A stretch of 53,132 nt of DNA from a bacterium (lineage in GTDB: Bacteria; Patescibacteriota; Minisyncoccia; Phycocordibacterales; UBA9973), in NCBI GenBank assembly GCA_037132055.1, contig JBAXPX010000002.1, forward strand, positions 1-53,132, written 5' to 3'. Below, one piece after another: positions 2,337 through 53,132 of the stretch (position 1 is its first letter; the number at the start of each line of letters is the position of its first letter). The notes under the pieces were generated by a model. The model was given only the letters and a program-made list of their open reading frames with translations. It was not told the origin of the DNA and did no database searches. A program made the position numbers and the translations under genes.

Positions 2337-2975
2337 ATGCAAAATAAAAAATTAATACGATTTGCGGAGTCATTCATTCTTTTACCAATAATGACGTTAT
2401 CAATGCCATCAGGGACTATCCCTAAAAATGATTTTGATACAACTGTTCAAGCTCCTCGGATAGTATTATCTCAAAAAGAGAATATTGGGCCCCTAAATCT
2501 ATTTGCTTTTAACCAAGCAGTAGACGAAAAGGCTAAAATCCTTAAGATCAAAGCTGATGCCGTAGATGCGTATTTCGAGTCGCATAGTATGCCACTTCAT
2601 GGTATGGGATTGAAATTAGTACAAGAAGCCGAAAACAACGATCTTGACTGGCGTCTTTTGGCTGCGATAGCTGTTCGAGAGTCTACTGGGGGTAAGTTTG
2701 ATTGTAAGAAAGTTGAAAATAATCCTTTTGGCTGGGGATCTTGTAAAATAGGTTTTGACACTATTGATGAATCTATTGAGACAGTAGCTAGGAATCTTGG
2801 TGGGAACAATCCCAACACTGCGTACCACTATTCTGGTAAGGATACCAAAGCAATACTTCAAAAATATAATCCACCGTCAATTGTACCAAGATATGCTCAG
2901 CAAGTGATGTCTATAATGAACGAAATTGGAAATGAAATTATAGTGCTTTCTGAAGAAACTAATAATAATACATAA
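2337..2975 (+). CDS. Secreted or anchored protein with a glucosaminidase/lysozyme-like domain (cell-wall hydrolase candidate)
   Basis: N-terminal hydrophobic segment. LDWRLLAAIAVRESTGGKF...NNPFGWGS resembles the muramidase/glucosaminidase fold motif (..ESGWG...N.FG). Confidence 0.45.
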   Translation: MQNKKLIRFAESFILLPIMTLSMPSGTIPKNDFDTTVQAPRIVLSQKENIGPLNLFAFNQAVDEKAKILKIKADAVDAYFESHSMPLHGMGLKLVQEAENNDLDWRLLAAIAVRESTGGKFDCKKVENNPFGWGSCKIGFDTIDESIETVARNLGGNNPNTAYHYSGKDTKAILQKYNPPSIVPRYAQQVMSIMNEIGNEIIVLSEETNNNT

Positions 2976-2985
2976 TAAACAAAAA

Positions 2986-3005
2986 CCCCTGTCAGATGAC
3001 AGGGG
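2986..3005. terminator. Bidirectional rho-independent terminator between convergent genes
   Basis: Hairpin cccctgtc-agat-gacagggg, flanked by an A-run upstream and a T-run downstream. Confidence 0.7.
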
Positions 3006-42370: not shown

Positions 42371-42997
42371 ATGAAAAAAGTTGGTGATGAAATAATTAAA
42401 AAAGAAGAAAACGAACATATTGAAAGTACTCCAGCTGATTCGTCTGAATTAGATTCCGAAGTACTTGAGTTCGAATTCAACGAAGACGGAGAAGAAGATC
42501 TTAAAAAAACAATTAAAAAATTAAGATCTGATTTAAAGTTGTGTAAAAAAGAAAAAGATGAATATTTGGCAGGTTGGCAAAAAGAGCGAGCGGATTTTGT
42601 TAATTATAAAAAACAAGAAGAAGCAAGGAAATTAAATTTTTCGGAAAGTTTACGTGAGAGAATTTTGGCCAGATTCCTCACTGTTATAGATAGTTTTAAT
42701 ATGGCATTTTCAAACAAGGAAACTTGGGAGAAGGTAGATGAAAATTGGAGGAAGGGAATAGAATATATTTATGCTCAGATGAATACGATTTTCGAAGAGT
42801 ACGGAGTAAAACCCGTTGGAGAAGTAGGGGAGAGTTTTGATCCAAATATTCATCAGTCTGTAGAAATGGTAGAAACTCTAAAAAAAGAAGAAGATCATAA
42901 AGTCTGTGAGGTTGTTCAAAAAGGGTATAAACTTGGTGAACGTGTTATCCGTGCTGCGCGAGTAAATATTTTTGAATACAAAAACTCTACAGAATAG
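42371..42997 (+). CDS. grpE: Nucleotide exchange factor GrpE
   Basis: Acidic N-terminus, coiled coil, WQKERADFVNYKKQ, FDPN.HQSV, V.QKGYKLGERVIRAA.V. Confidence 0.88.
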   Translation: MKKVGDEIIKKEENEHIESTPADSSELDSEVLEFEFNEDGEEDLKKTIKKLRSDLKLCKKEKDEYLAGWQKERADFVNYKKQEEARKLNFSESLRERILARFLTVIDSFNMAFSNKETWEKVDENWRKGIEYIYAQMNTIFEEYGVKPVGEVGESFDPNIHQSVEMVETLKKEEDHKVCEVVQKGYKLGERVIRAARVNIFEYKNSTE

Positions 42998-43030: not shown

Positions 43031-43055
43031 TTGAGCAAGGCCTTGCCTTGCTCAA
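43031..43055. repeat. REP-like 25-nt palindrome, copy 1 (inverted relative to copies 2 and 3); also serves as the grpE terminator hairpin
   Basis: ttgagcaagg-ccttg-ccttgctcaa followed by ttttt. It is the exact reverse complement of the 25-mer at 43758 and 44002. Confidence 0.8.
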
Positions 43056-43089: not shown

Positions 43090-43761
43090 ATGTCTATAAG
43101 AAAAATAAATTTTGTAGAGGGGGAATATTATCATATTTATAATCGGGGTAATAGTAAACAAAAAATTTTTAATGACAAAGAAGATTATTTAAGATTTATT
43201 TCTTTACTTTATATTTCTAATTCAAATGAAGGATTTAGATTTTTTAACACATCTAGAAATATGAGTATCTATGAAATAGATAAAGGTAGTCCTTTAGTTA
43301 GTATTGGAGCGTATTGTTTAATGCCAAATCATTTTCATATATTAATAACTCAAAAAAAGAAAAATGGTATCAGTCAATTTATGCAAAAATTAAGTACCGG
43401 ATATTCAATGTACTATAATAAAAAATATGAAAGGACTGGCAGTCTTTTTGAAGGTAAATTCAAATCACAGCATTTAGGTACAGATAAATATTTAAAATAT
43501 TTGTTTTCTTACATTCATTTGAATCCAGTAAAATTAATTCAAAACGACTGGAAGGAGAAGGGGATTAAAAATAAAAAAGATGTTATTGATTATTTAGAGA
43601 AGTATTCTTATTCAAGTTATTTAGATTATTTAAATTTTGAATCAAAAAGGCCAGAGTTCAATATATTGACTCCAAATTTTTTCCCAGAATATTTCCCAAC
43701 AAAAGATAAATTTCAAAAAGAAATCTTTGAATGGCTTTCATATGACATTATGCAAAGTTGA
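43090..43761 (+). CDS. REP-associated tyrosine transposase (RAYT) / IS200-like Y1 HUH transposase
   Basis: YHIYNRGN, YCLMPNHFHILI (HUH = HFH), and catalytic Tyr region YIHLNPV; 223 aa. Confidence 0.85.
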   Translation: MSIRKINFVEGEYYHIYNRGNSKQKIFNDKEDYLRFISLLYISNSNEGFRFFNTSRNMSIYEIDKGSPLVSIGAYCLMPNHFHILITQKKKNGISQFMQKLSTGYSMYYNKKYERTGSLFEGKFKSQHLGTDKYLKYLFSYIHLNPVKLIQNDWKEKGIKNKKDVIDYLEKYSYSSYLDYLNFESKRPEFNILTPNFFPEYFPTKDKFQKEIFEWLSYDIMQS

Positions 43762-43782
43762 GCAAGGCAAGGCCTTGCTCAA
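43758..43782. repeat. REP-like palindrome, copy 2 (overlaps the RAYT stop codon), followed by a degenerate half-copy at 43783-43797
   Basis: ttgagcaagg-caagg-ccttgctcaa. The TGA stop lies at 43759-43761, inside the left arm. Confidence 0.8.
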
Positions 43783-44001
43783 CTTTGCCTTGCTCGAATC
43801 TTGAAGGCCATAGTATAAGGGTAGAGTATTATATACATTGATAAACATTGATATTAAAAATAATATTGTTTAGTAATGTTTTACAGATTCTTTTAAAGAA
43901 AATGCATTTCAAACAAAGTGTTTTTAGAAATTAGTTTCAAAATATAAAAAATGAAAGTAAAAACGGAGGCGATACCTTTGTTTTTTTTCTATGAACAATG
44001 T

Positions 44002-44026
44002 TTGAGCAAGGCAAGGCCTTGCTCAA
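44002..44026. repeat. REP-like palindrome, copy 3 (direct repeat of copy 2)
   Basis: 25-mer identical to 43758-43782, lying 92 nt upstream of the giant ORF's first ATG. Confidence 0.8.
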
Positions 44027-44117
44027 GTAGAGTAAATTAATTTTTTAAGTTATTAACATTTTTTAGTGAAAAAAGTTGAATATATAATGATATAATTTAT
44101 GTAGTAAAAAATATTAA

Positions 44118-47100
44118 ATGAGAAAATTTCTCCAAAGAATAATTAAAAAGTTCAGAAGTTCTAATATTTGGCTTATAGATAAAAAGAATCTGAGTTCTTT
44201 TTATCGTATTCGTGTCCGTGATAAAAAAATCATTACAAATTTTAAAATTACTAACTTAAAAAATCAATTAACAATTAAATATAAAATTATGCCCAGCATC
44301 ATTTCACTAAATCAAATGAAAAACTTATTAAAAAAAATAAATAAAGAAAGAAAAAATATTTTTTTCTTTTTAAAACAAATTAAGAAAATAAAAAGAACAC
44401 AGCTTGTCGGACTTGTTTTGATTTTTTCAGTAGTTTCTTTTTTTTATAATCCAAAACCAGTTCATGCTGCTTGTGCTCTTTCTGGAACCATAGCTACGAG
44501 TTACAACTGGGCAGGTTGTGCCGGAGAAGCGACCATCAGCGGTAGTGTGACTTTCGCAGCAGGAACTCATAATCTAGGTGCTACTAATTTGACCATCAAC
44601 AGTGGTGGGACACTTATCCCTGCGCCTTCTAGTACTACTGTAAATGGTGCGACGGGAGTGACAATAAACACTACCGGGAATATTACAGTGGCTTCTGGTG
44701 GAACTATCAATGGAAATGGCCAAGGATACACTGGAAGAAGTTATGCTTCTGGTAGTCCACTTGGTCAGGGCTATGGTGAAGGTGGTGGAACAAGAGGTTA
44801 TTATGGTGGAGCTGGTGGAGCTCATGGTGGAGCTGGTGGAAAAGGAAATGCTAGTAGTGTGAGAAATACAACTACTTATGGTAGTGCAACTAATCCAGTT
44901 AGCTTGGGTTCTGCTTCAGGGGCATCGAATGGTACTAACATATTCAATCCTGGTGGTGGAGCAATAAAATTAAATGCATCGGGAACTGTCACTATCAACG
45001 GAACAGTTTCTGCTAATGGAAATTCGGGGACTGGAACAAGTGCTGGTGGAGCGGGAGGAAGTGTTTGGATAGTTGCTGGGACTTTGACGGGTTCTAATTC
45101 GGCAACTATTTCGGCTAATGGTGGAGATGGAGCAGGAACTTATAGTACTAATGCTGGTGGAGGAGGTGGAGGAGGAAGAATTAGTTTACAAACTTCTGGC
45201 ACAGATACTTATGCTGGATCAATAATAGTTGAAGGAGGTTTGGGGCTAGAAGGAGGAGAAGCAGGGACACTAGAGAGAACTGTTGGAACTCCGGGTGATA
45301 TTATTATTGCAGCTGGGAGTACTGTTACTTGGACAAGGGGTGAACACACTTTTCATGATTTAACAATTCAATCAACTGGTGTCCTTACGACCGGTGAAGC
45401 TGAAGCTGCAGGAGGAGGCAATAATTCCAATGGCCCATTTATTGGTGGAGGACCTGGTCCCGGATTAAGTGGTGATAAGGGTGGAGGTGGTGGAGGGCAC
45501 GTTGGAGCTGGTGGAACTGAAGGTGGCGGAACAAGGGCAGGAGTTGGTGGTAGTGCATACAATAGTGATGGACTTCAAGTGACACAGCCAACAGATATGG
45601 GATCAGCTGGTGGAGGTTCTGCGCAAGATGGTCTTGGTAGTTATGGAGGAGGAGCAATAAAATTAACTATAACGGGGACTTTGACAGTAAATGGTAAAAT
45701 TTTAGCTGATGGTCAATCCAATGGAACTAGCGGTGGAGGATCAGGAGGAAGTATTTGGATAAATGCGCCTACGGGCACAGTGAATTCTACCGGTGGAGAA
45801 TTTTCTGCACATGGTGGAGTTGCTGGAACTGGTACAGCCAACAATGGAGGCGGCGGAGGATCAGGAGGAAGAATTGCTTTTAATGCGGGAACAAAAAATC
45901 TCAGTGCTATTACTGTTGACGTCGCAGGTGGTACGGGAGTAAATAATGGTGGAGACGGAACTGTCTCGGGGTTGCTTTATTCATCGATCACTTCTCCAAC
46001 GTCTGCAGCTAGAAATACTTTTACATCAGTAACAGGAACTGCGGCAGACTATAGTGGGGCGACACTTGGTTATGTTGATGTTTCTATTTATAATGGAAGC
46101 CAATATTGGAACGGTTCTAGTTTTAATCAAGCTAGTGAATATTGGTTGAGAGCGACAGGAACTTCTTCTTGGAGTTATGCGGTGAGTGGACTTACGAGTC
46201 CGGGTGTTACCTTGACAGTACACTCGAGAGCGAAATCTGGAAGAGGAGTTGAATCTTTTTTTGAAACACCTGGAACAGGAGTAACTTTTAATTTAGATAC
46301 TGTTGCGCCGACCCTAGCTACTGTCACAGCTATACCAACTGCTACAAATGACAACACTCCAAACTATATTTTTTCTTCCACAGAAGCCGGAACCATAACT
46401 TATGGTGGATCATGTAGTTCTGCCACAACTTCAGCAACATCTGGATCAAATACTGTTACTTTCAATACACTTACTGATGGAACATACAGCAACTGTACAG
46501 TGACAGTTACTGATGCAGCGACAAATGCTTCGTCTGCACTTTCTGTGCCTACGTTTACTGTTGATACAGTTGCGCCTACCGCTCCCATCGCAGTCACATT
46601 TACTGCAACAGGTGGAAATGTTTTAGCAAATACTTTAAATTCTACAAATACAAACTTTACAGCAGGTGCAACTATAACTGCAGCAGATGCAACTGGTGGA
46701 ACAGCAGAACTTTTGAAAGGTGGTGCATCTTTTAGTCCAGCTATAATGGATAGCAGTATTTCTGCTGGAGATACGACTGTGACATTTAACGCAGGACTTG
46801 CAAGTAATGCAGCCGTGCAGACAGCATTTGCAAGTGGAGCAGCACTTTCAGTAAGACTTTGCGACCTCGCAGGAAACTGCACAACGAGTTCTGTATCAAA
46901 CCCTACTATTACTGTCGACTACATAGCACCAACAAATCAAGATTCTGTATTAACGGCAGATGCTATGTTTAGATCGAGTGGCACAGTGACGATAGCAAGC
47001 TCAGGAAATGCTACAAACAATATTTGGATCGCGCCACTTGGCACGACTAGTTTTACAGCAGGTTCTACAATGACGACAGCAGGAGGAACATCTACTACTA

Positions 47101-50100
47101 TTCTTTCTCCTTCAGCTGAGGGAACTTATCGTTTGTATGTCATCGATGCAGCAGGGAACGTATCAGCTGCATCTACACACACAGTCATAGTAGACTCGAC
47201 TGCACCTACACCAAGTGCACCGACAAATACTGCCCAGAGATTAAATAGTGAAAGTCTTTCTAACTCAACTGTTCAGATAAATGAAGCGGGGACGATATAT
47301 TTAGTAAAGACAGGTACTGGACCAGTAGCGGCTCTTCCTGATACTGCGAATTTAACAAATATGGTTATCAGTAATTCACCATCAAATTATACTTTCTCTG
47401 GTGGAACATATAATTATAATGGTGTTACTGTGCTCAGCACTGTAACAAGTGTCACAGTAACTCCGACAGGAGCAGGGACTATCACAGTAAATGGAATGAC
47501 AGTGACATCAGGTCAAGCATCAGGAGCAATTGCTCTTACTGCTGGAGTAGAAAGAGTGATCGATGTAGTGGCTACAGAGTCAGGAAAAAATCCAAGGATT
47601 TATACGATTAGGATAATAAGAGGTCCGACGTTAGGTACAAGTTGGCAAGGTGGTAAAGTTGCTTATGTTAATGGGTCTGGGGGGTTTATAGTAACGGACA
47701 ATGACATAACTAGTGCAGACAATGCTTCTTGTTCTGCTGTACACCCAATTGGACAAGGACAAGGAGCAGGTACAGGATCAGCAATAGGTACAGGAAAGGC
47801 AAACACAGATGCACTTGTAGCACTTTGCGGAGCAGGTCCAAACTCTGCTACTGTTGCTCATGCTTTAGTATTAAATGGTTATAGTGATTGGTATGTACCA
47901 TCATCTGGTGAATTCATTACTATGTCATTAAATAAAAACGCAATTAATGCTAATTTTGTCGATTCCACTAATTACTGGAGTTCAACGACTTCCGGCTGGT
48001 TGTCCTCTGTTACTTGTGATATAAATGGGTATTCTTCTTGTGGAGGAAGTGGTTATAATGTAATTAAGCCTGGTCGTGCCATTCGAGACATCACAATAAC
48101 TCCAACTCTTCCAACTCCAACATTCAGTCTAAGTGGAGCAGTTGCTCATGGTTCAACTGTAACAATCACATCTGCTGGAGCCGATGCAATATATTACACT
48201 ACTGATGGTAGTACTCCTACGACGTCATCAACGAATCAAGCGACGACACCACTTGTAATAAATGGACCTGTGACTGTAAAAGCTTTGGCAGTGAAAGCTA
48301 ACTATTATAACGCTTCTAGTCTTGCAACCTTTACTGAAATATTTGATTGGAATAATGAAATCAATGTTGATCACACTGCATTCATAGGCAAATCATCTGC
48401 TGTTGCAGATATTCCATATAGAGTTACATTACCAGCAGGATTGGTAGATGGAGTTTATGACATAATCGGAGTTGACTTGGTTGGAAATACATCAAATGCA
48501 CTTGCTGGCTGGCTGACGGTGGATAATACTGCTCCAACCTTGGCTACGGTCACAGCAGTCACAAACCCCACAAACGACAATACTCCAAATTATATTTTTT
48601 CTTCCACAGAAGCAGGAACTATATCATATGCTGGATCATGTAGTTCTGCCACAACTTCAGCAACGTCTGGATCAAATACTATTACTTTCACTACACTTAC
48701 TGATGGAACATACAGCAACTGTACAGTGACAGTGACTGACGCAGCGACAAATACTTCGTCTCTACTTTCTGTGCCTTCGTTTACAGTTGATACTGCTGGT
48801 CCAACAGTCACCCTTACCTCTAATGATCCTGATCCAACAAATGGAACTATAAATGTTAGAGCGACATTCGGTGAATCAACCACAAACTTTGTAGTAGGAG
48901 ATATTACAGTCACAAATGGTACTGCAGGTAATTTTACAGGTAGTGGAATGGTATATGATTTTGAAATTACTCCAACTACTGACGGAACAGTATCAGTCGA
49001 TGTCAATGCAGGAGTAGCGACTGATGCAGCAGGAAATCCTAACTCTGCAGCAACACAATTGACGAGATTGTATGATAGTATTAACCCTACTTCAACTATC
49101 ACACCTATATGTAGCACTCCGGGCAACGGATGTACTCCTGCAGGAGAAGCTCAAAATCCACCAGGATCATATGGGGTGAGGTCAATAGTAGGTAGCGCAT
49201 CAGATGCTACAGGTGGAGCTGGAGTTAGTACGGTAGAAATTTCTATAAAAGATACAAATGCAAATGTTTGGTATAGTGGCACATCTTTCTCTGATGTGAG
49301 CGAGACATACCTTCCAGTCACGACAGGCACGACTACGTGGAGTTATAATTCCTCTGGAATATCACTTGAAATCGGACATGTCTATCAAGTAAATGTGAGA
49401 GCGACAGATGGAGCAGGGAACGTAGAAAGTCCCGTGCAAACTCTTTCATTTGAATTTACAAACTCTCCGCCGACTGTTTCAAATGTATCTGCATCACAAA
49501 ATTCAAGTGGAGTAGTAAGTGTGTCTTATAATGTTACAGATAATGAATCTACACAAACTTCAAATTCTCTATTCTATTGGTCAGGTTCTACTCTCAGTGG
49601 AAATATTTCAAGTGCAGTGACATCATTGACTACATCAAATGTAACAAGTTTCCCAACTTCTGGAACTATTTTGATAGATGATGAAATTATAAACTATGCA
49701 AGTAAGTCAGGAAATGTATTGCAAGGTCTCACAAGGGGATCGGCAATAAATTATCCTACTACTTCAAATACAACGACACCGTTTGCGCACTCTTCAGGAG
49801 CACAAATATTTATTTATGCTACTTCTGCTACGGGAGATATTGGTTTGTTGAATAAAGGTACAGGGAAAAATATAACATGGACTGCAAGTGCTGATGCAGA
49901 TGGTTATGAAAATATAAATGAAATTATAAAAGTTGTTGCAAACGATGGATCTACAGGTTCGATGGTTGGATCTTCGCTGTCTTCTATATTTATTCTTGAC
50001 GCAGCGAAACCAACGATAAATGGCACAACACTTTTGATAAATGACACTGATGCTGATGTGATAAGTTTATCACCTAATATAACTCTCAAACTTCAAAATA

Positions 50101-53100
50101 TAACTGGGCATCCTGTTGACGAAAATATTTTTGTGCAATTCTCAAGAGATGGGGGAACTACTTGGTATGGAGCAAACGCAGATGGAACTCTCTCGGGATC
50201 AGGGACAATGGGGACAGGATTTTCTTCTAGCTTGACTGTCATCGGCGCGCTTTCGTGGCCTTGGACTATGACCTCAAGATCAGAAACCATAACTGTAAAA
50301 ATAACAGACAGCTATGGAAACTATGCAGAAGACACAAACACTGTCGGGTATAATGCTCCACCAGAATTCAATGTCGACTATCCTTCGACTAGTGCAGGTG
50401 GGCTCAGTGTTGTTCAAGTAGCTGACAAAAATGATGCGAATTTTGGAAAAGTAAAAATAGAATATTCTATTCGTGATACTGACACAGACGTGGACACAGT
50501 TCCAGGGTTTGTGACTCCTACATTTAGTTACAATACTGGTAGTGGGTGGAATACGATAAATGACGTGGATATTGTTTATGCAACTGCGCCAACTGGAGGA
50601 CAAATAATAGATCAAAATACTGATGGAGTTCGTGATAATAAAGTTTCAACTTCTTCATACTATATCTATACAGCATACTGGACACCGACAACTAATATCG
50701 AAACTGCAACTGCACAATTTAAACTCTCGATCAGTGACTTGGAAACAAATAACAGCACTACGACTAAAGAAATTTCTAATTTACTAATAGATTCAAAAAA
50801 ACCAGTGGTTACTCCGATCACGTTTGACGCGGGAATAGCAGGATCACCAGAGTCTGCTTTGGTTACCATACCTATGCCTACTGATTTATCTAGTGTTCAA
50901 TATAAAATCAAAGATGATTCTTCAAATTCTAATCCACAAGATACTGGTTGGAAAAGTATAAACGAAAGTACAACCATACCGTGGACGTTTGATTCTGTTT
51001 TGGGAATAAAAACATTAAAGTATCAATTCAGGGATGCTTATGAAAATACTACAAACGAAGTGTCCACTTCAACTCTTACCCCCGTCGACTCTAATTCATT
51101 TGTAGTACAAGATGCATCAAATCCGAGAATTCCTTCGTATGATATGTATATCAGTTGGAAGGCGATAACCGATGCAACGGGGTTTGATTCGTATAAATTA
51201 GAATTTGCAACTTCTACTGACAATTCATTCTTCTCAAGTTATCAATCTATCGGGACCGGGATGGATAGTTCTACTACAAATTATTTTGTTCACAGGAGTC
51301 TAGATCCGACAAAATATTATAGATATCGATTAGGAGTAGTAGGGACCAATGGAAATATTTCTGTTCGCTCAGGAGGATATGTCACTGCTAAGCCAGATGG
51401 AATTCAGAATTTTGGTGAAGGTAGTGGAGGGGGTAGTGTGGCTGCTGCTTCTCAAGTAGAAAATGTTGTTCCAGTCCAAGGTTCAGATAAAAATGTTACT
51501 GTTACTTATAAACTCACAGACCCATCTTTGTCGAACAAAACTGATCCTTTGTATGAAGCAAGAGTTTTCTATAATATCGGTATAACATTGCCGACAAATG
51601 CAGATGCTGGAGGAAATATAAAAGTATCTGATGCTTCAAAACTTAAATCTTCAGGATATATTCAAATAAATAATGAAGTTATAAAATACACTGGAAAATC
51701 TGAAAATACCTTAACAGGGATAACGAGAGGAACTTGGCCTACAGATATAACGACTAACCGTGTCACCAGACAAAATCCGTTATTATTTGCAGGTACACCA
51801 GTATGGGTAATGGCTTCTACGACAGCCATAAATACTATTGCAAACAATAGTATTGCTTATGGTCAAAATGGAACTATTACATGGACTACATACGATGAAT
51901 CAGCACTAGCTGGCGGAGTTTACAATAATGTTGGCATCAGAGTTCTAGTACACGACAATCAAGATGCTGGTTCTGGACCACTTTCGAGTCAGAGTGATTA
52001 TTCAGAAAACGGAATATTAAATATTTTGGATTTAAATACTCCGACGATTGGATTTGACACGACGCATAGTTCTGGTTTGGAAAGCGTAACTCCTGCCGTA
52101 TTTACTATAAACTTGAATAGAATTTATCCGAGTGCTGTGAGTGTAGACTATACTGTTGCCGGTACTGCAGTAGGTGGTGGAACAGACTATACACTTGTAA
52201 ATGGGACAGCGACAATAACAGCAGGACAAACTACGACGAGCTTGAGTGCTGTGATTGTGAACCATAATCAAGTAAGACCAAACAAAACAATAATTATAAC
52301 TCTTTCAAATCCTGTGAATGCAACTTTGGGAGCTAATAGTGTTCATACTTATACAATAATAAATCACGACACAAGTACTACACCTCCAACAGTCACTATC
52401 GTTCCGCCAAGTGTAATGCACGTACTCAGTGGAACTGTTTGGGCAGATCAAGATCCGGGCGCAACAGCTACGGATACAATAGATGGTGATCTTACTTCTA
52501 GTATAGTTGTTACTGGTGCTCCGTCTATGAATACTCCAAGCACAACTCCGTATACTGTCACATATTCTGCTACAAATAGTTCAGGGCAGACGGGAACTGC
52601 AACTCGTGAAGTTTATGTCGATGACGCAAATGCTGCAACATTTGAAATAACAGCGATTCAAAGTACTGGTGGTTTGATCTCACCAGAAAATGCTACGACT
52701 GTGCAAGTTCATTCAGATCAGGCTTATACTATTACTCCAGACGAATGGTATAAAGTTGACAGTATTACAATAGACACAAATCTTCCACTTGCGCCAACTG
52801 CAGGAGTAAATCATTACACATTTACAGATGTTACTGCGCCTCACACGATCACAGCAGCATTTTCTGCATTGCCTGATACAACTCCACCAGTTATCCTCAT
52901 AACAGGACCAACGACAGTCCAACTCACTGTCGGTGATACATATAGTGACCAAGGTGCAACAGCTTCAGACACATATCTTGGAGTTACTACTCCATTGACT
53001 GATTCGATTGAAGTATTTAGTAATGTAAATAATTTAATTCCAGGAACTTATCAAGTCAGATATACAGTCTCCGACTCCGCCGGCAACACAGCCACTGCCA

Positions 53101-53132
53101 CAAGAACAGTAGTAGTTTCTTACAATGAAACT
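44118..53132 (+). CDS. Giant membrane-anchored multi-domain surface protein (adhesin-like), 5-prime part only; at least 3005 codons and open at the window end
   Basis: Hand translation of the frame starting at 44118 (in-frame TAA at 44115-44117) shows no stop through 53132. Alternative in-frame ATGs lie at 44289 and 44316. TM/signal segment is TQLVGLVLIFSVVSFFY...VHA. Gly-rich repeats, many Ig-like modules, and Calx-beta-like and DUF5011-like modules follow. This ORF is absent from the supplied ORF track. Confidence 0.9.
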   Translation, partial: MRKFLQRIIKKFRSSNIWLIDKKNLSSFYRIRVRDKKIITNFKITNLKNQLTIKYKIMPSIISLNQMKNLLKKINKERKNIFFFLKQIKKIKRTQLVGLVLIFSVVSFFYNPKPVHAACALSGTIATSYNWAGCAGEATISGSVTFAAGTHNLGATNLTINSGGTLIPAPSSTTVNGATGVTINTTGNITVASGGTINGNGQGYTGRSYASGSPLGQGYGEGGGTRGYYGGAGGAHGGAGGKGNASSVRNTTTYGSATNPVSLGSASGASNGTNIFNPGGGAIKLNASGTVTINGTVSANGNSGTGTSAGGAGGSVWIVAGTLTGSNSATISANGGDGAGTYSTNAGGGGGGGRISLQTSGTDTYAGSIIVEGGLGLEGGEAGTLERTVGTPGDIIIAAGSTVTWTRGEHTFHDLTIQSTGVLTTGEAEAAGGGNNSNGPFIGGGPGPGLSGDKGGGGGGHVGAGGTEGGGTRAGVGGSAYNSDGLQVTQPTDMGSAGGGSAQDGLGSYGGGAIKLTITGTLTVNGKILADGQSNGTSGGGSGGSIWINAPTGTVNSTGGEFSAHGGVAGTGTANNGGGGGSGGRIAFNAGTKNLSAITVDVAGGTGVNNGGDGTVSGLLYSSITSPTSAARNTFTSVTGTAADYSGATLGYVDVSIYNGSQYWNGSSFNQASEYWLRATGTSSWSYAVSGLTSPGVTLTVHSRAKSGRGVESFFETPGTGVTFNLDTVAPTLATVTAIPTATNDNTPNYIFSSTEAGTITYGGSCSSATTSATSGSNTVTFNTLTDGTYSNCTVTVTDAATNASSALSVPTFTVDTVAPTAPIAVTFTATGGNVLANTLNSTNTNFTAGATITAADATGGTAELLKGGASFSPAIMDSSISAGDTTVTFNAGLASNAAVQTAFASGAALSVRLCDLAGNCTTSSVSNPTITVDYIAPTNQDSVLTADAMFRSSGTVTIASSGNATNNIWIAPLGTTSFTAGSTMTTAGGTSTTILSPSAEGTYRLYVIDAAGNVSAASTHTVIVDSTAPTPSAPTNTAQRLNSESLSNSTVQINEAGTIYLVKTGTGPVAALPDTANLTNMVISNSPSNYTFSGGTYNYNGVTVLSTVTSVTVTPTGAGTITVNGMTVTSGQASGAIALTAGVERVIDVVATESGKNPRIYTIRIIRGPTLGTSWQGGKVAYVNGSGGFIVTDNDITSADNASCSAVHPIGQGQGAGTGSAIGTGKANTDALVALCGAGPNSATVAHALVLNGYSDWYVPSSGEFITMSLNKNAINANFVDSTNYWSSTTSGWLSSVTCDINGYSSCGGSGYNVIKPGRAIRDITITPTLPTPTFSLSGAVAHGSTVTITSAGADAIYYTTDGSTPTTSSTNQATTPLVINGPVTVKALAVKANYYNASSLATFTEIFDWNNEINVDHTAFIGKSSAVADIPYRVTLPAGLVDGVYDIIGVDLVGNTSNALAGWLTVDNTAPTLATVTAVTNPTNDNTPNYIFSSTEAGTISYAGSCSSATTSATSGSNTITFTTLTDGTYSNCTVTVTDAATNTSSLLSVPSFTVDTAGPTVTLTSNDPDPTNGTINVRATFGESTTNFVVGDITVTNGTAGNFTGSGMVYDFEITPTTDGTVSVDVNAGVATDAAGNPNSAATQLTRLYDSINPTSTITPICSTPGNGCTPAGEAQNPPGSYGVRSIVGSASDATGGAGVSTVEISIKDTNANVWYSGTSFSDVSETYLPVTTGTTTWSYNSSGISLEIGHVYQVNVRATDGAGNVESPVQTLSFEFTNSPPTVSNVSASQNSSGVVSVSYNVTDNESTQTSNSLFYWSGSTLSGNISSAVTSLTTSNVTSFPTSGTILIDDEIINYASKSGNVLQGLTRGSAINYPTTSNTTTPFAHSSGAQIFIYATSATGDIGLLNKGTGKNITWTASADADGYENINEIIKVVANDGSTGSMVGSSLSSIFILDAAKPTINGTTLLINDTDADVISLSPNITLKLQNITGHPVDENIFVQFSRDGGTTWYGANADGTLSGSGTMGTGFSSSLTVIGALSWPWTMTSRSETITVKITDSYGNYAEDTNTVGYNAPPEFNVDYPSTSAGGLSVVQVADKNDANFGKVKIEYSIRDTDTDVDTVPGFVTPTFSYNTGSGWNTINDVDIVYATAPTGGQIIDQNTDGVRDNKVSTSSYYIYTAYWTPTTNIETATAQFKLSISDLETNNSTTTKEISNLLIDSKKPVVTPITFDAGIAGSPESALVTIPMPTDLSSVQYKIKDDSSNSNPQDTGWKSINESTTIPWTFDSVLGIKTLKYQFRDAYENTTNEVSTSTLTPVDSNSFVVQDASNPRIPSYDMYISWKAITDATGFDSYKLEFATSTDNSFFSSYQSIGTGMDSSTTNYFVHRSLDPTKYYRYRLGVVGTNGNISVRSGGYVTAKPDGIQNFGEGSGGGSVAAASQVENVVPVQGSDKNVTVTYKLTDPSLSNKTDPLYEARVFYNIGITLPTNADAGGNIKVSDASKLKSSGYIQINNEVIKYTGKSENTLTGITRGTWPTDITTNRVTRQNPLLFAGTPVWVMASTTAINTIANNSIAYGQNGTITWTTYDESALAGGVYNNVGIRVLVHDNQDAGSGPLSSQSDYSENGILNILDLNTPTIGFDTTHSSGLESVTPAVFTINLNRIYPSAVSVDYTVAGTAVGGGTDYTLVNGTATITAGQTTTSLSAVIVNHNQVRPNKTIIITLSNPVNATLGANSVHTYTIINHDTSTTPPTVTIVPPSVMHVLSGTVWADQDPGATATDTIDGDLTSSIVVTGAPSMNTPSTTPYTVTYSATNSSGQTGTATREVYVDDANAATFEITAIQSTGGLISPENATTVQVHSDQAYTITPDEWYKVDSITIDTNLPLAPTAGVNHYTFTDVTAPHTITAAFSALPDTTPPVILITGPTTVQLTVGDTYSDQGATASDTYLGVTTPLTDSIEVFSNVNNLIPGTYQVRYTVSDSAGNTATATRTVVVSYNET
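46300..46565 (+). repeat. Intragenic repeat A (Ig-like module ...NDNTPNYIFSSTEAGTITYGGSCSSATTSATSGSNTVTFNTLTDGTYSNCTVTVTDAATN...)
   Basis: About 90 percent identical by eye to 48526-48791, offset 2226 nt (742 codons, in frame). Identical runs of 33 and 42 nt. Confidence 0.85.
48526..48791 (+). repeat. Intragenic repeat B (second copy of the same Ig-like module)
   Basis: See repeat A. Shared runs are tggatcatgtagttctgccacaacttcagcaac and tacacttactgatggaacatacagcaactgtacagtgacagt. Confidence 0.85.

Follow-up and report, generated by a model that had tools for sequence, protein, structure and literature searches.

Apart from the type IV pili of Saccharibacteria, little is known of how ultra-small Patescibacteria recognise partner cells and keep hold of them. 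Giant surface proteins are standard candidates for attachment, but metagenome assemblies usually break their genes into fragments and their annotation is poor. NCBI has 2.1 million Patescibacteria proteins, of which 149 are longer than 4,000 amino acids (aa); they are inferred to be adhesins, are without full-length homologs and are thought to evolve via domain shuffling (PMC11809585). Examples are the >4,000-aa FN3 surface proteins of Patescibacterium danicum and Absconditicoccaceae (PMC11809585; PMC13059738). Here we describe a protein of the same phylum and size class, encoded on the forward strand at positions 44118-53132 of a 53,132-nucleotide (nt) stretch of DNA (contig JBAXPX010000002.1 of assembly GCA_037132055.1; hereafter the window). 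Like the P. danicum and Absconditicoccaceae proteins, it has an N-terminal signal or transmembrane segment and arrays of FN3, immunoglobulin (Ig)-like and Calx-type domains, is without full-length homologs beyond close relatives, and shows domain shuffling between relatives, with a presumed role in interaction with a host. FhaB (COG3210) and DUF2341 domains mark out the P. danicum proteins, whereas the window protein has a pair of solenoids without Pfam match, an Lcl_C-like module, a CHB_HEX_C module, DUF5011/Flg_new_2 units and a 94-aa basic leader. Given its genome affiliation, a length that grows from 3,005 aa to 4,050 or ~4,210 aa on extension, an N-terminal hydrophobic segment and beta-sandwich arrays, the protein is best filed in the known class of giant fibrillar adhesin-like Patescibacteria proteins, and the general picture of that class is unchanged. 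The open reading frame (ORF) is probably the 5' three-quarters of the gene for a Sec-exported extracellular protein of ~4,050-4,210 residues from an uncultivated Parcubacteria/Nomurabacteria-like member of the Patescibacteria, which would act as a rod-like adhesin or spacer.

Further afield, monoderm bacteria have fibrillar adhesins (examples are Embp of S. epidermidis and a 7,651-aa Ig-repeat protein of Mobiluncus mulieris) that combine a Sec signal with dozens of Ig/FN3-like stalk domains and a few binding modules (PMC9302970; PMC10619420). As in the present case, variation in their repeat number breaks assemblies. Many monoderm fibrillar adhesins are tethered to the wall via a C-terminal LPXTG motif, whereas the window protein has neither LPXTG nor a C-terminal transmembrane helix, and its repeats are heterogeneous rather than near-identical. 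The giant repeats-in-toxin (RTX) adhesins that Gram-negative bacteria export by the type I secretion system (T1SS), among them LapA, MpIBP and SiiE, resemble it in size, in their Ig-like extender and in carrying Calx-beta/cadherin-like domains of a Ca-binding type. Such adhesins depend on an outer membrane and have, besides a T1SS signal, RTX repeats at the C-terminus and a retention module at the N-terminus, whereas the window protein has an N-terminal Sec-type signal and no GGxGxD motif, and the ATP-binding cassette (ABC) system encoded beside it is of the MacB type (type VII), not a T1SS. The metagenomic orthologs P0002 (5,011 aa), P0258 (5,104 aa) and P0257 (2,821 aa) are collinear with it at 48-62% identity over long blocks and share its leader (38-56% identical) and its C-terminal FN3 block, and their loci share a downstream CarboxypepD_reg protein, response regulator, ABC ATPase and FtsX permease (62-73% identical). 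They differ in P0002 and P0258 having extra Ig blocks, in P0257 being without the Gly-rich solenoids and carrying six strong Calx-beta copies, and in P0002 being without the Cadherin-like/Lcl_C block (aa 1168-1339 unaligned).

The gene was proposed in a first-pass annotation of the window by eye, and automated translation bears it out. The frame runs from ATG 44118 to the final base through 3,005 sense codons without a stop, and an in-frame TAA (44115-44117) lies just 5' of it, as had been claimed. Over the same interval each of the five alternative frames contains 108-263 stops, and the probability of 3,005 stop-free codons at the local base composition is ~6e-90. A protein database search with the 3,005-aa sequence returned 780 homologs at E <= 1e-5. 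The ORF is missing from the list of ORFs, which holds only antisense frames in this region (44574-44825, 46400-46882, 48590-49126 and 50280-50615), because its frame runs past the end of the source; the first-pass annotation had presumed the want of a stop within the window to be the reason. The raised G+C content that had also been noticed is real (0.38-0.45 within the giant ORF against 0.30-0.36 in the rest of the window, ~8-10 points up), but the excess lies wholly at codon position 2 (0.545 vs about 0.26-0.46 in the neighbours). At the third position the value of 0.224 falls among those of the housekeeping genes (0.20-0.29), and the synonymous codon preferences match too. The excess therefore reflects an amino-acid composition rich in Gly, Ala, Thr and Ser (Thr 15%, Gly 12%, Ser 11%, Ala 9%) and not foreign DNA, an origin of the G+C rise that this comparison rejects; the giant gene is compositionally native to its genome.

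A database record of the identical protein (3,005 aa) places it on a contig of exactly 53,132 bp; therefore the window is the entire contig and the gene is truncated at the contig end. Its 90%-identity cluster holds three further entries: a complete version of 4,050 aa (P0129), a partial protein of 1,211 aa (P0128) whose first six residues, VSYNET, are the final six of the window protein and which continues for 1,205 aa to a stop, and a 1,017-aa C-terminal piece (P0130) from a 94,398-bp NCBI scaffold. This scaffold (L002/L006), which is 100% identical to the window across 20,043 nt, reads on in frame for 161 residues past the window, equal to one repeat unit, before a gap of 100 N shifts the frame. 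Joining the window protein to P0128 gives 4,210 aa and agrees with the scaffold to residue 3,166, at the start of the N gap. The complete 4,050-aa gene is present, with flanking genes on both sides, in two ENA assemblies. Extension of the contig thus reaches the true stop that the first-pass annotation had wished to see and, on these overlaps, the window ORF is the first 3,005 of a predicted ~4,210 codons, the 5' three-quarters of the gene. The two full lengths differ by one 160-aa unit of a Bact_surface_Ig-like and a Flg_new_2 domain, five units versus six, and the repeat number is either variable between strains or collapsed in one of the assemblies. The gene looks incomplete here because short-read assembly broke inside this 160-aa tandem repeat; such fragmentation of giant genes by assembly is documented in a preprint (bioRxiv 10.1101/2023.11.21.568195). 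A search of GTDB representative contigs with the giant protein gave 33 pattern matches, none of which was confirmed; GTDB apparently has no representative for the species or its close relatives.

The choice of ATG 44118 as the start is supported because the leader is conserved. Over residues 1-128 the identity with the N-terminus of P0002 is 56%, and an exhaustive HMMER search with residues 1-122 found just four matches among 1.84 billion representative proteins, two of them giant (2,821 and 5,104 aa). The basic N-region (44118..44399, + strand; aa 1-94), with 28 K/R against three D/E and a net charge of +25, is predicted to be cytoplasmic. It is followed at 44400..44471 (+) by the H-region and a putative signal-peptidase-I-like site, that is, by the hydrophobic stretch LVGLVLIFSVVSFFY (aa 95-110; 44400-44447) and then NPKPVHA↓A, of the AXA type (the arrow marking the predicted cut). 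A hydropathy scan and the translation agree with the basic N-terminus, single hydrophobic helix and KPVHA of the first-pass annotation, aa 95-110 being the sole hydrophobic segment in 4,210 aa. The H-region and AXA motif are conserved in P0002, P0255, P0257 and P0258, relatives having VEA↓A, ARA↓D or AIA↓A at the equivalent place, and the H-region pattern LIFSxVSFxYNP is conserved beyond generic signal-peptide needs. The 14 Cys of the 4,210-aa sequence make seven close pairs within single modules (for example 766/793 and 915/921), as would be expected of an extracytoplasmic protein. These features lead us to infer export by the Sec route with a cytoplasmic N-terminus, and cleavage at the predicted VHA↓A site is likely.

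Two Gly-rich beta-solenoid modules come next (44469..45272, +, aa 118-385; 45273..45977, +, aa 386-620). The second is a paralog of the first, with an internal repeat of aa 256-303 against 487-534 at 44-46% identity in BLAST of sequence chunks. The AlphaFold2 model of module 1, built from a 26-sequence alignment, is confident (pLDDT 88.4, pTM 0.89) and all-beta, with rungs of three short strands. Neither module has a Pfam match, and Foldseek against the PDB gave nothing significant (best E 0.19, TM-score <= 0.33); most of the 37 weak, non-significant matches are nonetheless beta-helix proteins, namely two-partner secretion (TPS) domains, ice-binding proteins, autotransporter passengers and pectate lyases. 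Of the earlier claim of two Gly-rich beta-helix-like modules, the presence of the modules stands, while their fold is a confidently modelled all-beta one whose resemblance to beta-helices is non-significant; 'beta-helix-like' is a fair description of the modelled fold class, and there is no characterised relative. The ~265-aa module occurs in up to 10 tandem copies in other giant proteins, the named examples being mostly from Verrucomicrobia, with a few further named carriers in Planctomycetota, Omnitrophota and others, and such proteins account for most of the non-Patescibacteria homolog matches. In these Gly-rich giant 'beta strand repeat-containing' proteins (for example P0009-P0030) the modules are 38-48% identical to the two in the window protein and share with them ~20 invariant Gly/Pro/Arg positions and a placement directly after the signal peptide. 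They differ in having the module 7-10 times in tandem and, often, Peptidase_C14 and PF24595 at the C-terminus, whereas in the window protein two copies give way to the Ig/FN3 array.

The rest of the protein was mapped by Pfam scans of the whole 3,005-aa sequence and of ten overlapping pieces of the reconstruction, and by chunked BLAST for repeats; for P0002, BLAST coordinates were used, since phmmer of single segments missed this homolog in places. The families at or above the gathering score (GA) are Cadherin-like, Big_12, Bact_surface_Ig-like, Calx-beta, fn3, Pur_ac_phosph_N and Flg_new_2; a whole-protein sequence search of the PDB gave a marginal match to the Ig domain of bacillolysin only. 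A train of beta-sandwich modules of ~90-118 aa occupies 45978..47354 (+; aa 621-1079). The VD(T/S)xAPT junctions that had been seen between such modules are confirmed by the motif positions (VDxxAPT at aa 726, 815, 933, 1025, 1468, 1557 and more) and by internal repeats (aa 724-821 vs 1466-1563, 85%; 637-738 vs 1689-1792). Big_13 matches two stretches in the whole-protein scan (E 5.9e-9), and a Big_13-like module lies at aa 724-821. At the DNA level, 46296-46567 and 48522-48793 form a 272-nt direct repeat, 87.5% identical, which encodes two Big_13-like modules and could be a second place where recombination or assembly error alters the number of modules.

Several of the families called by eye further along the chain also hold. 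The Cadherin-like domain (47355..47621, +; aa 1080-1168) matches PF12733 with E 3.7e-8 and 34.1 bits (GA 24.2). The segment read as chitobiase/hexosaminidase C-terminal-like is a CHB_HEX_C_1/Fn3_assoc module (48132..48329, +; aa 1339-1404, with CHB_HEX_C_1 at 1339-1402) matching PF13290 with E 4.8e-12 and 46.1 bits and PF13287 with E 1.9e-9. Between these two lies a divergent Lcl_C/DUF1566-like module (PF07603; 47622..48107, +; aa 1169-1330), which is the sole non-Ig-like candidate for ligand binding. Here the DUF1566/Lcl-like call was only partly upheld: the window copy scores 21.3 bits (E 3.5e-4; aa 1249-1292, profile positions 33-85 of 117), below the GA of 34.9, whereas in the ortholog P0257, which is collinear with the window protein (aa 1023-1568 vs 116-673, 48%), the domain at the equivalent position passes as Lcl_C with 35.3 bits. 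The best PDB sequence match of the module is 8q4e, 'HbP1', with two collinear motifs at E = 1, and on sequence it is best called a divergent relative of Lcl_C. A pair of Ig-like domains follows at 48513..49058 (+), Big_13 at aa 1466-1559 and Big_12 at aa 1558-1647 (E 4.1e-14).

The central region includes a lineage-restricted beta module with an inserted mini-domain (49485..50012, +; aa 1790-1965), recognised by the motif SGTILIDDEIINY...LxGLTRG and referred to as the IDDEIINY module, and a paralog of it at 51435..52037 (+; aa 2440-2640). Its alignments (A2 and A3) contain invariant Y, D, G, E, Y, K, R and W residues. AlphaFold2, given a 13-row alignment, is confident for the mini-domain only (pLDDT 83-94 at model residues 30-90; mean 58.5), and Foldseek with this model found nothing significant (E >= 0.09), the weak likenesses being to parts of phage baseplates and tailspikes and to the N-terminal barrels of F1-ATPase. 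All named homologs of the module are from Patescibacteria (Nomurabacteria, Paceibacterota and, with P0005, Moraniibacteriota), and a search with the central region returned five proteins only, the three with a named taxon being from Nomurabacteria or Paceibacterota.

For the FN3 and Calx-beta domains, the outcome depends on how the sequence is searched. The FN3 domain at 51081..51413 (+; aa 2322-2432) is sub-threshold in Pfam (E 0.045), fn3 matching just three of 11 family members, yet the profile of those 11 sequences (A4) matches the titin array (E 1.1e-14), contactin-5 (1.7e-4) and the FN3 domain of chitinase A1 (3.5e-3) in the PDB; the domain also aligns in register with the C-terminal FN3 repeats of the same protein (hhalign P 7e-4). 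The Calx-beta domain at 52038..52364 (+; aa 2641-2749) passes the GA of 27 when PF03160 is run on a 470-aa piece (28.6 bits) but not on the whole 3,005-aa protein (23.8 bits). Both calls of the first-pass annotation hold. Its two DUF5011-type Ig modules are clear Bact_surface_Ig-like domains (PF16403, E 2.7e-26) and mark the start of a tandem array with Flg_new_2 (52407..53132, +). In the window the array has an Ig domain at aa 2764-2834, a Flg_new_2-like domain at ~2842-2920 and an Ig domain at 2928-3000, directly after which the contig ends. The units are ~160 aa apart; the part of the reconstruction past the window adds a further four Ig + Flg_new_2 units as well as five fn3/Pur_ac_phosph_N domains.

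Collectively the modules suggest how the protein would be built and deployed. A long basic leader, one H-region and the AXA (VHA↓A) site would leave the remaining chain outside the cell, where two Gly-rich solenoids would be followed by ~25-30 Ig-like, FN3, cadherin-like and Calx-beta sandwiches and by the C-terminal arrays, with one Lcl_C/DUF1566-like module, one CHB_HEX_C-like module, six units of DUF5011-Ig plus an InlB-B-repeat-like domain, and five C-terminal FN3 domains among them. In such a rod-like adhesin or spacer at the cell surface, reach would be provided by the Ig/FN3 array, and binding to glycans and proteins of a partner cell or matrix by the solenoid, Lcl_C-like, CHB_HEX_C-like and Calx-beta modules. 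Gene extension, domain content and topology support the modular cell-surface protein of the first-pass annotation, and the roles in host attachment or surface-layer (S-layer) formation raised there may be read from the sequence as candidates. A number of points nevertheless weigh against the adhesin reading. Some 1,600 residues (aa 118-720 and 1650-2640) are without Pfam match, and a non-adhesive activity of these parts is possible. The predicted length of 4,210 aa depends on the 6-aa overlap between the window protein and P0128 together with the scaffold. Finally, if the AXA site is cleaved, the product would be left with no LPXTG, SLH, lipobox or C-terminal transmembrane helix; its retention at the surface would be unexplained, and it could be released rather than held there.

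Patescibacteria are reported to carry S-layers, and a secretion signal together with an all-beta composition rich in Thr, Gly and Ser would also suit an S-layer or envelope structural protein that tiles the surface rather than binding ligands. We regard this as quite unlikely. The S-layer class was rejected because Pfam, run on the whole reconstruction, gave neither SLH nor any other family that anchors proteins to the cell wall, and the size and beads-on-a-string build fit fibrillar adhesins and not lattice formers; moreover, close strains have different repeat numbers (4,050 vs 4,210 aa) and the order of the domains changes between sister genomes (2,821 to 5,104 aa), which is typical of variable adhesins. 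Marginally less credible still is a secreted carrier of an enzyme or toxin, either a polysaccharide lyase-like beta-helix or an FhaB/TPS-like exoprotein, with the Ig/FN3 array merely presenting a catalytic or toxic module. The weak Foldseek neighbours of the Gly-rich module include the TPS domain of EtpA, pectate/alginate lyases and autotransporter passengers, and FhaB (COG3210) domains have been annotated in large Patescibacteria proteins (PMC11809585); none of those structural matches is significant, however, and Pfam and PHROGs contain no catalytic, toxin or TPS (Haemagg_act) family for this protein, nor was a TPS, autotransporter or other outer-membrane secretion domain found. A TPS exoprotein in particular was rejected for lack of an N-terminal Pfam match, with the match to EtpA non-significant (E 0.19, TM-score 0.21-0.32) and no POTRA/ShlB-type gene in the flanks. 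TPS and autotransporter secretion need an outer membrane.

A recently acquired foreign or mobile cassette between two IS200-like genes is improbable too, if by a slightly smaller margin. It would account for the G+C increase and for the 19-kb block between grpE and dnaK that is bounded by two 51%-identical Y1_Tnp genes and associated with REP-like hairpins, and the same cassette is found in different contexts elsewhere. Against it, the third-position G+C and codon preferences of the giant gene are indistinguishable from those of housekeeping genes, its close homologs are all from the same Patescibacteria lineage, and enzymes of the IS200/RAYT type are not known to move composite units of 19 kb. 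Other candidates were also rejected. A sortase-anchored LPXTG adhesin does not fit a sequence with no LPx[TSA]G in 4,210 aa, a sole hydrophobic segment that is N-terminal, and a C-terminus that ends in ...DVIFKNFDQTFNFLKNVK with no transmembrane helix, nor does an RTX/T1SS adhesin fit one with no GGxGxD motif in 4,210 aa, no HemolysinCabind in the Pfam scans and FN3 domains at the C-terminus. A phage tail fibre or receptor-binding protein was dismissed on the lack of any PHROG at E <= 1e-3 and on flanks made up of ribosomal, chaperone and regulator genes. The target of a diversity-generating retroelement was dismissed on the absence of a second copy of 47501-48150 in the window (word size 7) and of any reverse transcriptase gene call in the 10-kb downstream flank.

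The adhesin reading is open to one refinement, in which the giant protein is the client or extracellular partner of the MacB/FtsEX/LolCDE-type ABC system encoded beside it. Eight related loci were examined, and in every one the giant gene adjoins genes for ABC_tran and MacB_PCD/FtsX proteins (PCD, periplasmic core domain), while the outer flanks differ by locus; in six of the eight a small receiver-only Response_reg gene lies between the giant gene and this pair. The loci are those of the window's own genome (L006:15054-18099), P0002, P0003 (contig cut), P0004, P0020, P0027, P0257 and P0258 (contig cut), with the sequences, besides those of P0003 and P0004, on L001, L010, L011, L012 and L013. 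The NCBIfam models nearest the pair are LolD/FtsE/MacB and FtsX/LolC/MacB. The ATPases (438-467 aa) have a conserved cytoplasmic C-terminal extension of ~210 aa with two GG[VL]G[LF]-type motifs, which is absent from ordinary MacB/LolD/FtsE ATPases, and those of four loci share 34-38% identity from end to end, this extension included; they therefore belong to one orthologous subfamily.

FtsEX switches the activity of PcsB/CwlO and LolCDE extracts lipoproteins from the membrane. By analogy, ATP-driven mechanotransmission would extract an N-terminally anchored giant protein or switch its conformation or activity, and the conservation of the H-region beyond what a signal peptide needs is in line with such a partnership, as are the constant adjacency despite changing flanks, the frequent response regulator and the shared ATPase extension. 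On the other hand, adjacency is not interaction, and the link seen here is one of gene order; pumps of the MacB type are common, with small molecules or peptides often as their cargo, the transporter genes all lie outside the window, and the loci were picked by homology to the giant protein, several being close relatives. We therefore hold this partnership to be possible but doubtful. Slightly more tentative again is the fuller proposal that the giant protein, its basic leader, the MacB/FtsEX-type ABC system with the extended ATPase and the response regulator form one co-inherited Parcubacteria-type module, in which the type VII machine would mechanically extract, retain or switch the adhesin after Sec export, under phosphorelay control. 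A mention of MacB-type ABC linkage was not found in the reports on the P. danicum and Absconditicoccaceae proteins (PMC11809585; PMC13059738).

The remaining genes of the window agree with the assignment of the organism. Upstream of the giant gene are those for alanyl-tRNA synthetase (AlaRS), an FtsA-like protein, S13, S11, S4, RpoA, L17, L13, S9, GrpE and an IS200/RAYT-like Y1 transposase. For AlaRS, all but one of the nearest named homologs (65-68% identity) come from Nomurabacteria, Paceibacterota, Parcubacteria or Minisyncoccia, in keeping with the ultra-small (Patescibacteria) origin first suggested. The transposase (43090..43761, +; PF01797, E 1.3e-10) lies directly upstream and is surrounded by a 21-nt hairpin-forming sequence, GAGCAAGGCAAGGCCTTGCTC, that is present in three exact copies at 43033-43053 (-), 43760-43780 (+) and 44004-44024 (+), the last 94 nt 5' of the giant ORF; none would be expected by chance. 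The combination looks like a REP/RAYT-type pairing, with the transposase scoring 45 bits against NCBIfam REP_Tyr_transpos, below the cutoff of 80. A terminator-like hairpin with a T-run at 43959-43985 (+), one found against 0.1 expected, separates transposase and giant ORF, which suggests that the giant gene has its own promoter; sigma-70-like promoter matches 5' of it are no commoner than in shuffled sequence. In four loci, a small MerR-family gene is found directly 5' of the giant gene (L001:830-1099, L009:6546-6818, L011:7592-7789 and L013:7344-7610), a position taken in the window's genome by the Y1 transposase.

Beyond the window the order of genes is a multi-pass CarboxypepD_reg membrane protein (630-650 aa), the receiver-only response regulator (148 aa), the ABC ATPase (467 aa), the MacB_PCD/FtsX permease, a PaaX-like regulator, a second Y1 transposase, dnaK and a TraG/VirD4-like gene. 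A block of ~19 kb thereby parts grpE (window 42371-42997) from dnaK (L006:19659-21545), genes that are usually adjacent, and its second transposase is in the opposite orientation to the first. The CarboxypepD_reg protein directly 3' of the giant gene (L006:13137-15029; 630 aa) has an N-terminal transmembrane helix, GYAWG..GWVNL / GGWINF repeats, a Pro/Thr-rich linker, several further transmembrane helices and two CarboxypepD_reg domains, and is 66% identical to its counterpart beside P0002; this makes it a conceivable membrane partner for the product of the giant gene. The coupling-protein gene after dnaK (L006:21629-23054; DUF87, TrwB_AAD_bind) fits the monoderm-type type IV secretion system reported for Patescibacteria (PMC12102498).

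For a class of proteins that is usually met in pieces, the present locus supplies a full-length reconstruction with a module-by-module map, along with evidence that the gene is native and that assemblies differ in its repeat number. It also supplies a confidently modelled Gly-rich solenoid which has no Pfam match or significant PDB neighbour and is common to giant proteins of other phyla. The most interesting finding is a testable lead, the genes for a MacB-type ABC transporter and a response regulator by which the giant gene is accompanied. Were the proposed module to prove real, it would constitute a previously undescribed system for deploying giant adhesins in wall-bearing ultra-small bacteria that are without sortase/LPXTG and T1SS.

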